The notes beneath the pieces are model-generated. The model searched no databases. It was given only the letters and a program-made list of their open reading frames with translations, and was not told the DNA's origin. 17,376 nucleotides of DNA from a virus (taxonomy: Duplodnaviria > Heunggongvirae > Uroviricota > Caudoviricetes), in the IMG/VR virus record IMGVR_UViG_2541047431_000017; one strand, 5' to 3'. Shown in pieces: positions 14,929 through 15,180 of the stretch. Both the position numbers and the translations under genes were made by a program. Every line of letters starts with the position of its first letter. Position 1 is the stretch's first letter.

Positions 14929-14972
14929 CTTTACTTTCATTTTCTGTCGGCGGTGACGGAGACATACACCAG

Positions 14973-15180
14973 ATGGAAAAAAATCACAACGGGTGTGTCA
15001 TACACCACGTCAGCGGTGGGGACGGGATACTGGTTACTGCAGCTGCTGGACAAAGTCTCTCCGTCCCAGTGGGTGGCGATAGGCGTGCTGGGGAGTCTGC
15101 TGTTTGGGCTGCTGACATATCTGACGAACCTGTATTTCAAGATTAAAGAAGACCGGCGTAAGGCGGCGCGGGGAGAGTAA
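14973..15180 (+). CDS. holin (Stx-phage S-type, about 70 aa), start codon out of frame through an A7 tract
   Basis: The hydrophobic frame ([66 protein letters not shown]) ends at 15180. The only SD-preceded ATG (14973, GGAG 10 nt upstream) is in another frame and is joined to it through AAAAAAA at 14977-14983. Confidence 0.6.

Follow-up and report, generated by a model that had tools for sequence, protein, structure and literature searches.

The S gene of phage 21 is the described counterpart of the locus studied here. Its product S21-68, a pinholin, releases the SAR endolysin by depolarising the membrane, and a longer form started at an upstream Met, S21-71, is the antiholin of S21-68, an extra N-terminal positive charge giving S21-71 its antiholin behaviour (PMC9636201). 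Many E. coli O157:H7 genomes have a protein of the same family, WP_000411805.1, under the annotation 'class II holin family protein'. We analysed a gene of this kind in a stretch of 17,376 nucleotides, referred to below as the window, which is the complete contig AVRE01000016.1 of the draft genome of E. coli O157:H7 B93. This isolate (clade 8.32, stx2a) was obtained in Missouri in 2005, and isolate B94, from a sibling in the same household, differs from it by 0 SNPs in pairwise comparison (PMC4928038). The deposited B93 genome has 50 contigs, compared with 236 in an Illumina-only SPAdes assembly, and the deposited low-contig genomes of that project are 454+Illumina Celera hybrids (PMC4928038). 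A hybrid origin of the B93 deposit fits the general statement of that paper together with the contig count.

The window carries a lambdoid prophage in which no stx gene was found, just about 520 bp separating the tRNA-Arg gene (12077-12153) from the esterase gene. An earlier account of this DNA, made from the sequence alone and called here the preliminary description, had referred to related Stx-type prophages; the label is imprecise for a prophage without stx, though the holin family is one common to Stx phages. Between the replication and Q-region modules, the prophage has paa (AcfC-family adhesin; 6199-6957) and a hokD-type toxin gene (7293-7448). An IS1203 insertion (IS3 family; 3679-4990) splits a DUF1627 gene. 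The tRNA gene at 11921-11996 is called tRNA-Met (CAT) by ARAGORN and tRNA-Ile by RefSeq for the same gene in relatives, and a second phage-borne tRNA gene, that at 12077-12153, is tRNA-Arg (TCT).

The holin gene and its lysis cassette

The features of the cassette and of the sequence 5' of it are as follows, in positions of the window:

12677..14527, forward strand: DUF6645/SASA esterase gene, a multi-copy prophage gene; the disagreement between B93 and B94 starts at 12988
14534..14968, forward strand: 'long-type' spacer 5' of the holin gene, with a switch of paralogue type at 14968/14969 (six-way alignment)
14953..15180, forward strand: 75-aa ORF with a GTG start, annotated at NCBI as WP_032293549.1; exact protein on one contig, the window
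14958..14961, forward strand: Shine-Dalgarno-like GGAG for ATG 14973 (direct reading); kept in long-spacer relatives
14973..15180, forward strand: holin gene of class II (phage 21 S-type), which one extra A lengthens from the 207 nt of relatives to 208 nt
14977..14983, forward strand: A7 run, A6 in relatives; the additional base sets ATG 14973 out of frame (comparison with relatives)
15185..15530, forward strand: YdfR/DUF1327 gene, 114 aa in relatives; T6 (15374-15379) in place of T5 breaks the frame; the repaired protein matches PF07041
15581..16113, forward strand: gene of a lysozyme whose N-terminus is SAR-like (177 aa in relatives); the frame is broken at 15684, where one A stands in place of AA; the repaired protein matches PF00959

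The ATG at 14973-14975 is followed by G14976 and then by the A7 run, and the membrane-protein frame that ends at 15180 lies in the +1 frame relative to this ATG (seen from the holin frame, the ATG lies at -1). Direct reading and the list of ORFs thus bear out the preliminary description on the arrangement itself, and also on the unrelated product of the ATG frame, a 57-aa sequence (MEKNHNGC...VFQD) that runs to a stop at 15146 and for which no Pfam match was found. The GGAG motif that it had placed 10 nt upstream of the ATG is present, at a measured distance of 11 nt. The GTG at 14953 is, as it had stated, in the membrane-protein frame and poorly served, the 20 nt 5' of it (actttcattttctgtcggcg) containing no Shine-Dalgarno-like purine run on direct reading; it is not, however, the sole alternative start, given that ATG 14785 (131-aa ORF) and GTG 14995 (61-aa product) are also in frame. 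As assembled, no intact reading frame runs from the Shine-Dalgarno-served start, since A7 breaks a frame that is intact in the A6 relatives. The window holds 38 homopolymer runs of at least six bases, and an A7 run is by itself not unusual.

Deleting one A, which had been expected to give a typical short holin, does so: the repaired ORF encodes 68 aa ending in ...RRKAARGE, is identical to WP_000411805.1 and scores 112.8 bits against PF04971 ('Bacteriophage P21 holin S', Phage_holin_2_1; gathering cut-off 26 bits), the 75-aa GTG product scoring 111.4 bits. Over 68 aa the repaired protein shares 76.5% identity with phage 21 S, and it is 94-98.5% identical to the holins of Stx1a- and Stx2a-converting phages. 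All 427 matching phage records gave a single-frame holin match, with at least 80% query coverage in 424 of the 427. The Kyte-Doolittle profile has a strong hydrophobic segment at residues 33-50 and a weak Gly/Ser/Thr-rich segment at about 7-25, and the C-terminus is charged; the profile fits the S21 alignment, and the two segments may correspond to the hydrophobic TMD2 and the weakly hydrophobic, SAR-like TMD1 of this holin class. By sequence, the gene is almost certainly an ordinary, already known class II holin of the phage 21 type (pinholin family).

A dual-start motif (Met1...Met4) is absent from the window, which reads ATA CAC CAG ATG at this place and has no start codon at -3 codons; the motif is typical of the PF04971 family and not obligatory, and PGAP annotates the 68-aa form as a member. 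Long-spacer holin alleles in general read ATA CAC/CAT CAG ATG (window 14964-14975), with no upstream Met. The short-spacer allele (positions 2492-2503 of locus L030) reads ATG TAC CAG ATG (MYQM), similar to the MKSM dual start of phage 21 S21. The long-spacer copies may therefore make a holin without an antiholin.

The order of the cassette in relatives is holin, YdfR/DUF1327, lysozyme, an antirepressor-like gene and a spanin-type 'lysis protein'. On sequence reading, the lysozyme N-terminus (MNAKIRYGLSAAVLALIGAGASAPEIL) resembles a Gly/Ala-rich SAR segment and is a putative one. The YdfR and lysozyme genes of the window are both broken, a point that the preliminary description had missed. Alignment places the lysozyme change as AA to A within GGAAGG; a change of the A run in GAAAAG, considered for the same indel, found no support in relatives and was discarded.

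Distribution of the three one-base indels

Against strains 272 and H6437, which are complete O157:H7 genomes, the window differs over 14968-17376 (2,409 bp) by exactly three one-base indels, at 14977, 15374 and 15684, and no substitutions were found in that span. The three indels lie within 708 bp, for which the chance with three random window positions is 0.005. The comparison of A-tract length with relatives, as the preliminary description had proposed, gives A6 in strains 272 and H6437 and in B94. The intact 68-aa holin is found on 845 contigs, while each of the broken products, i.e., the 75-aa holin WP_032293549.1, the 73-aa YdfR product ERC43630.1 and the 66-aa lysozyme fragment ERC43632.1, was found by exact protein look-up on AVRE01000016.1 only. 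In addition, among 5,426 complete E. coli genomes none has the 81-mer at 14970-15050 with A7. The preliminary description had named as a refuting finding homologues initiated at the GTG with the same A7; these were not seen in any independent case, WP_032293549.1 being the annotation of this contig alone. The 61-aa holin starting at GTG 14995 (26 contigs) was considered as a marker of A7 genomes and rejected, as its contigs start inside the holin gene or carry junk ends. In the draft genome DEC4F, a 66-aa lysozyme fragment (P0032) is frameshifted at the same place as the lysozyme of the window.

An A7 run at the same site is also present in SJ7, GPT21-004, CP088026, B26-1 (AVQU01000033.1) and one IMG/VR isolate contig (L036), and every A7 copy found is embedded among further nearby indels. 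B26-1, from the same project and of the same low-contig class as B93, has at least ten indels in 1.4 kb besides A7; CP088026 has at least ten single-base indels; in SJ7 and GPT21-004 the genes adjoining the A7 holin are flagged as frameshifted; and in the IMG/VR isolate contig A7 is followed about 40 nt on by a change of G4 to G3. Platform-independent variation in the length of the A run was not seen among the A7 occurrences found. The true-holin runs of IMG/VR comprise one A7 and at least 120 A6. Exact matches to an A7 20-mer numbered four in IMG/VR, three of which were set aside as chance matches in an unrelated AT-rich phage. Two A7 copies were rescued by PGAP with ATC starts (WP_032210841.1 and WP_050489768.1), and such starts are an annotation choice and no evidence of function. 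In the B26-1 contig (L165, positions 1-1400), an AG or AC is preceded by an inserted T five times over, a pattern suggestive of a systematic artefact in the consensus made by its pipeline.

The same contig provides frameshifts and insertions of another distribution. The methyltransferase gene (10823-11880) is split by a frameshift at 11504, with A3 in place of A4, that is common to B94 and F3398, and its 240-aa product is found in 182 blocks of the collection, 13 of them with contigs longer than 1 Mb. Judged by this sharing of sequence, the frameshift at 11504 is a real, inherited pseudogene mutation. The 240-aa product is widespread, and real frameshifts are therefore detectable by the same test of privacy, the methyltransferase serving as an internal positive control. 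The protein at the IS1203 junction (4932-5339) is present on two contigs only in the collection, that of B93 and AVRF01000018.1 of B94, and it marks the B93/B94 lineage. A 135-aa version of the junction ORF is on record; the protein look-up returned no record of a 141-aa version.

The sibling assembly and the prophage repeat

B93 and the B94 contig AVRF01000018.1 are identical over 1-12,987 of the window, IS1203 insertion included, and all 27 runs of at least six bases in this unique part agree between the two (27/27), private indels occurring only in the multi-copy part. Over 12988-14533 they are separated by 21 substitutions and one homopolymer indel private to B94, a frameshift of A7 vs A6 at 13138 (about 14749 of AVRF01000018.1) that splits the DUF6645 gene of B94 into 163-aa and 465-aa parts. 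B94 then enters a different, 'short' spacer and has an intact 71-aa holin with A6. The B94 contig ends at window position 15197, so that the alignment compares the A run of the holin, without the YdfR and lysozyme indels, and, being on a different spacer, it may represent another copy of the cassette than that of the window. The truncated holin, YdfR and lysozyme products are absent from B94 by protein look-up. The two isolates have 0 core SNPs, yet their assemblies show so many differences here that at least one of the two must be wrong in this repeat.

The cassette is present in 9-13 copies per O157:H7 genome, and Illumina draft contigs break at the 5' end of the holin gene. In a six-way alignment, the esterase gene of the window is mosaic, with at least three paralogue types represented. 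A complete genome matching the DUF6645 region of the window exactly was not found, the best reaching 99.5%, and the region is probably a blended or mis-joined repeat consensus. A further switch of type lies at the start of the cassette. Up to 14967 the window is of the long type, which in SS52 and EC4115 belongs to a different prophage, and from C14969 it is of the short type of B94, strain 272 and F3398. This switch is at the edge of the homology between copies, 8 nt before the A run, and the combination of the long spacer with C14969 occurs in no complete genome (best identity 99.5%). A switch at the exact edge of homology would be the pattern of a collapsed-repeat consensus, and homologous recombination at that very place appears unlikely.

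Readings of the A run and comparison with known systems

Taken together, the comparisons indicate that the extra A is very probably an error of the consensus in a multi-copy prophage repeat that was collapsed or mis-joined in the B93 draft, a conclusion drawn from sequence comparison and not from reads. A7 is taken as an error because it is private to one draft contig, where it is accompanied by two private frameshifting indels and by no substitutions in 2.4 kb, and because its position is only 8 nt within the border of a multi-copy repeat and the 0-SNP sibling B94 has A6. The preliminary description had left the choice open between a site of real inactivation or slippage and a sequencing error in the homopolymer; the privacy of A7, the two further indels, the repeat edge and the A6 of B94 strongly favour the error and tell against a real or slippage-prone site. 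Were the three indels real, the lysis cassette of one of about ten lambdoid prophages would have decayed, its holin, YdfR and lysozyme genes each inactivated by the slip of a single base, and that prophage would be lysis-defective and domesticated or cryptic. Prophage genes of O157:H7 are often pseudogenes and lysis genes are plausible targets of inactivation, homopolymers are natural hot spots for indels, and the window itself has a real methyltransferase frameshift and the IS1203 insertion, with frameshifted DUF6645 and fimbrial genes known in relatives. That at least five other assemblies have A7 at this site could likewise mean that the run is truly mutable. Set against these points is the balance of three indels to zero substitutions in 2.4 kb relative to complete genomes, since in mutation-accumulation data from E. 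coli substitutions outnumber indels about ten-fold. All three changes are, moreover, confined to one contig of one draft and to the part in which the sibling assemblies disagree, the A run adjoining the paralogue switch at the homology edge, and the truncated products are absent from B94, which is at 0 SNPs from B93 and has A6. We therefore regard real decay of the cassette as improbable. A real frameshift would leave one O157:H7 prophage incapable of host lysis, with a bearing on domestication and on the release of phage and toxin.

Functional slippage at the run could take the form of an A6/A7 slipped-strand ON/OFF switch, of +1 ribosomal or transcriptional slippage, or of an antiholin-like 75-aa form made from the GTG start. 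The run occupies codons 2-4, the classic place for phase-variable tracts, and A7 occurs in several unrelated strains, but each of these occurrences lies amid other indels of the assembly type. The run is also short and not conserved: phage 21 reads GAC AAA ATC at the same position and has no A run, so that a slippery site is not conserved here. Relative to the ATG the holin frame is +1, and on direct reading a +1 slip could be followed by re-pairing of tRNA-Lys on AAA; nevertheless, no slow or stop codon follows AAA to drive such a shift, the next zero-frame codon being AAT, and the phage matches are single-frame in 427 of 427 cases. We also considered -1 frameshifting on A AAA AAT and rejected it, as it leads to the third frame and not to the holin frame, which only a +1 shift could rescue. 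As to the GTG-start form, Arg and Lys residues are added at its N-terminus, recalling the charge effect in S21-71 (PMC9636201), but GTG 14953 has no Shine-Dalgarno sequence before it. Slippage of any of these kinds would leave the two downstream frameshifts unexplained, and we consider it very improbable. A related proposal is that the A6/A7 run of this widespread O157:H7 and Stx-phage holin is a true slipped-strand hot spot acting as a reversible switch between lysis-competent and lysis-defective states. It would account for A7 at the same site in B93, B26-1, SJ7, GPT21-004 and CP088026, and we likewise consider it very improbable.

On the preferred reading, that of a consensus error, the sequence from about 12,988 on would blend or mis-join several prophage copies in one consensus, in which three homopolymer lengths were miscounted within 708 bp (A6 to A7, T5 to T6 and AA to A). 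The gene of the real strain would most likely read ATG GAA AAA ATC... and make a normal 68-aa holin. By homology with S21, this holin would accumulate in the inner membrane and depolarise it via small holes, and the depolarisation would, by homology within the family, release a membrane-tethered SAR endolysin. The deposited drafts of B93 (this contig), B26-1 and B94 would accordingly contain errors of consensus, and probably mis-joins, where prophage sequence is multi-copy; WP_032293549.1, ERC43630.1 and ERC43632.1 would derive from errors and should not be taken as biological variants; and comparisons of the prophage 'variome' based on such drafts would over-count differences.

The changes resemble the homopolymer miscalls of 454 or hybrid assemblies and of uncorrected long reads in being single-base changes of A, T and A runs, confined to one assembly, in multi-copy sequence and without substitutions, and in that the hybrid draft B26-1 of the same project has the same A7 together with many other indels. 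The change of AA to A differs in this respect, as so short a run is a less typical site of error. With phase-variable (contingency) genes the locus shares a homopolymer in the first codons of the ORF, at which a one-base change switches the frame; it differs from them in that the tract is of 6-7 bases, lacks conservation in the family and shows differences of length in error-prone assemblies alone. As in phage 21, the holin gene opens a late lysis cassette, and a PF00959 lysozyme of SAR-like N-terminus is encoded downstream. In phage 21 the endolysin gene follows the holin gene directly, whereas here a YdfR/DUF1327 gene lies between holin and lysozyme, and, unlike phage 21 S, the gene of the window is out of frame as assembled. 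Compared with the prophages of O157:H7 and Stx phages, the prophage of the window shares their holin family and has paa and hokD without stx. Its holin gene is identical in nucleotide sequence to those of the O157:H7 and Stx-phage holins WP_000411805.1 and WP_000284517.1 (71 aa) apart from the extra A and, relative to the long-spacer copies, C/T at 14969.
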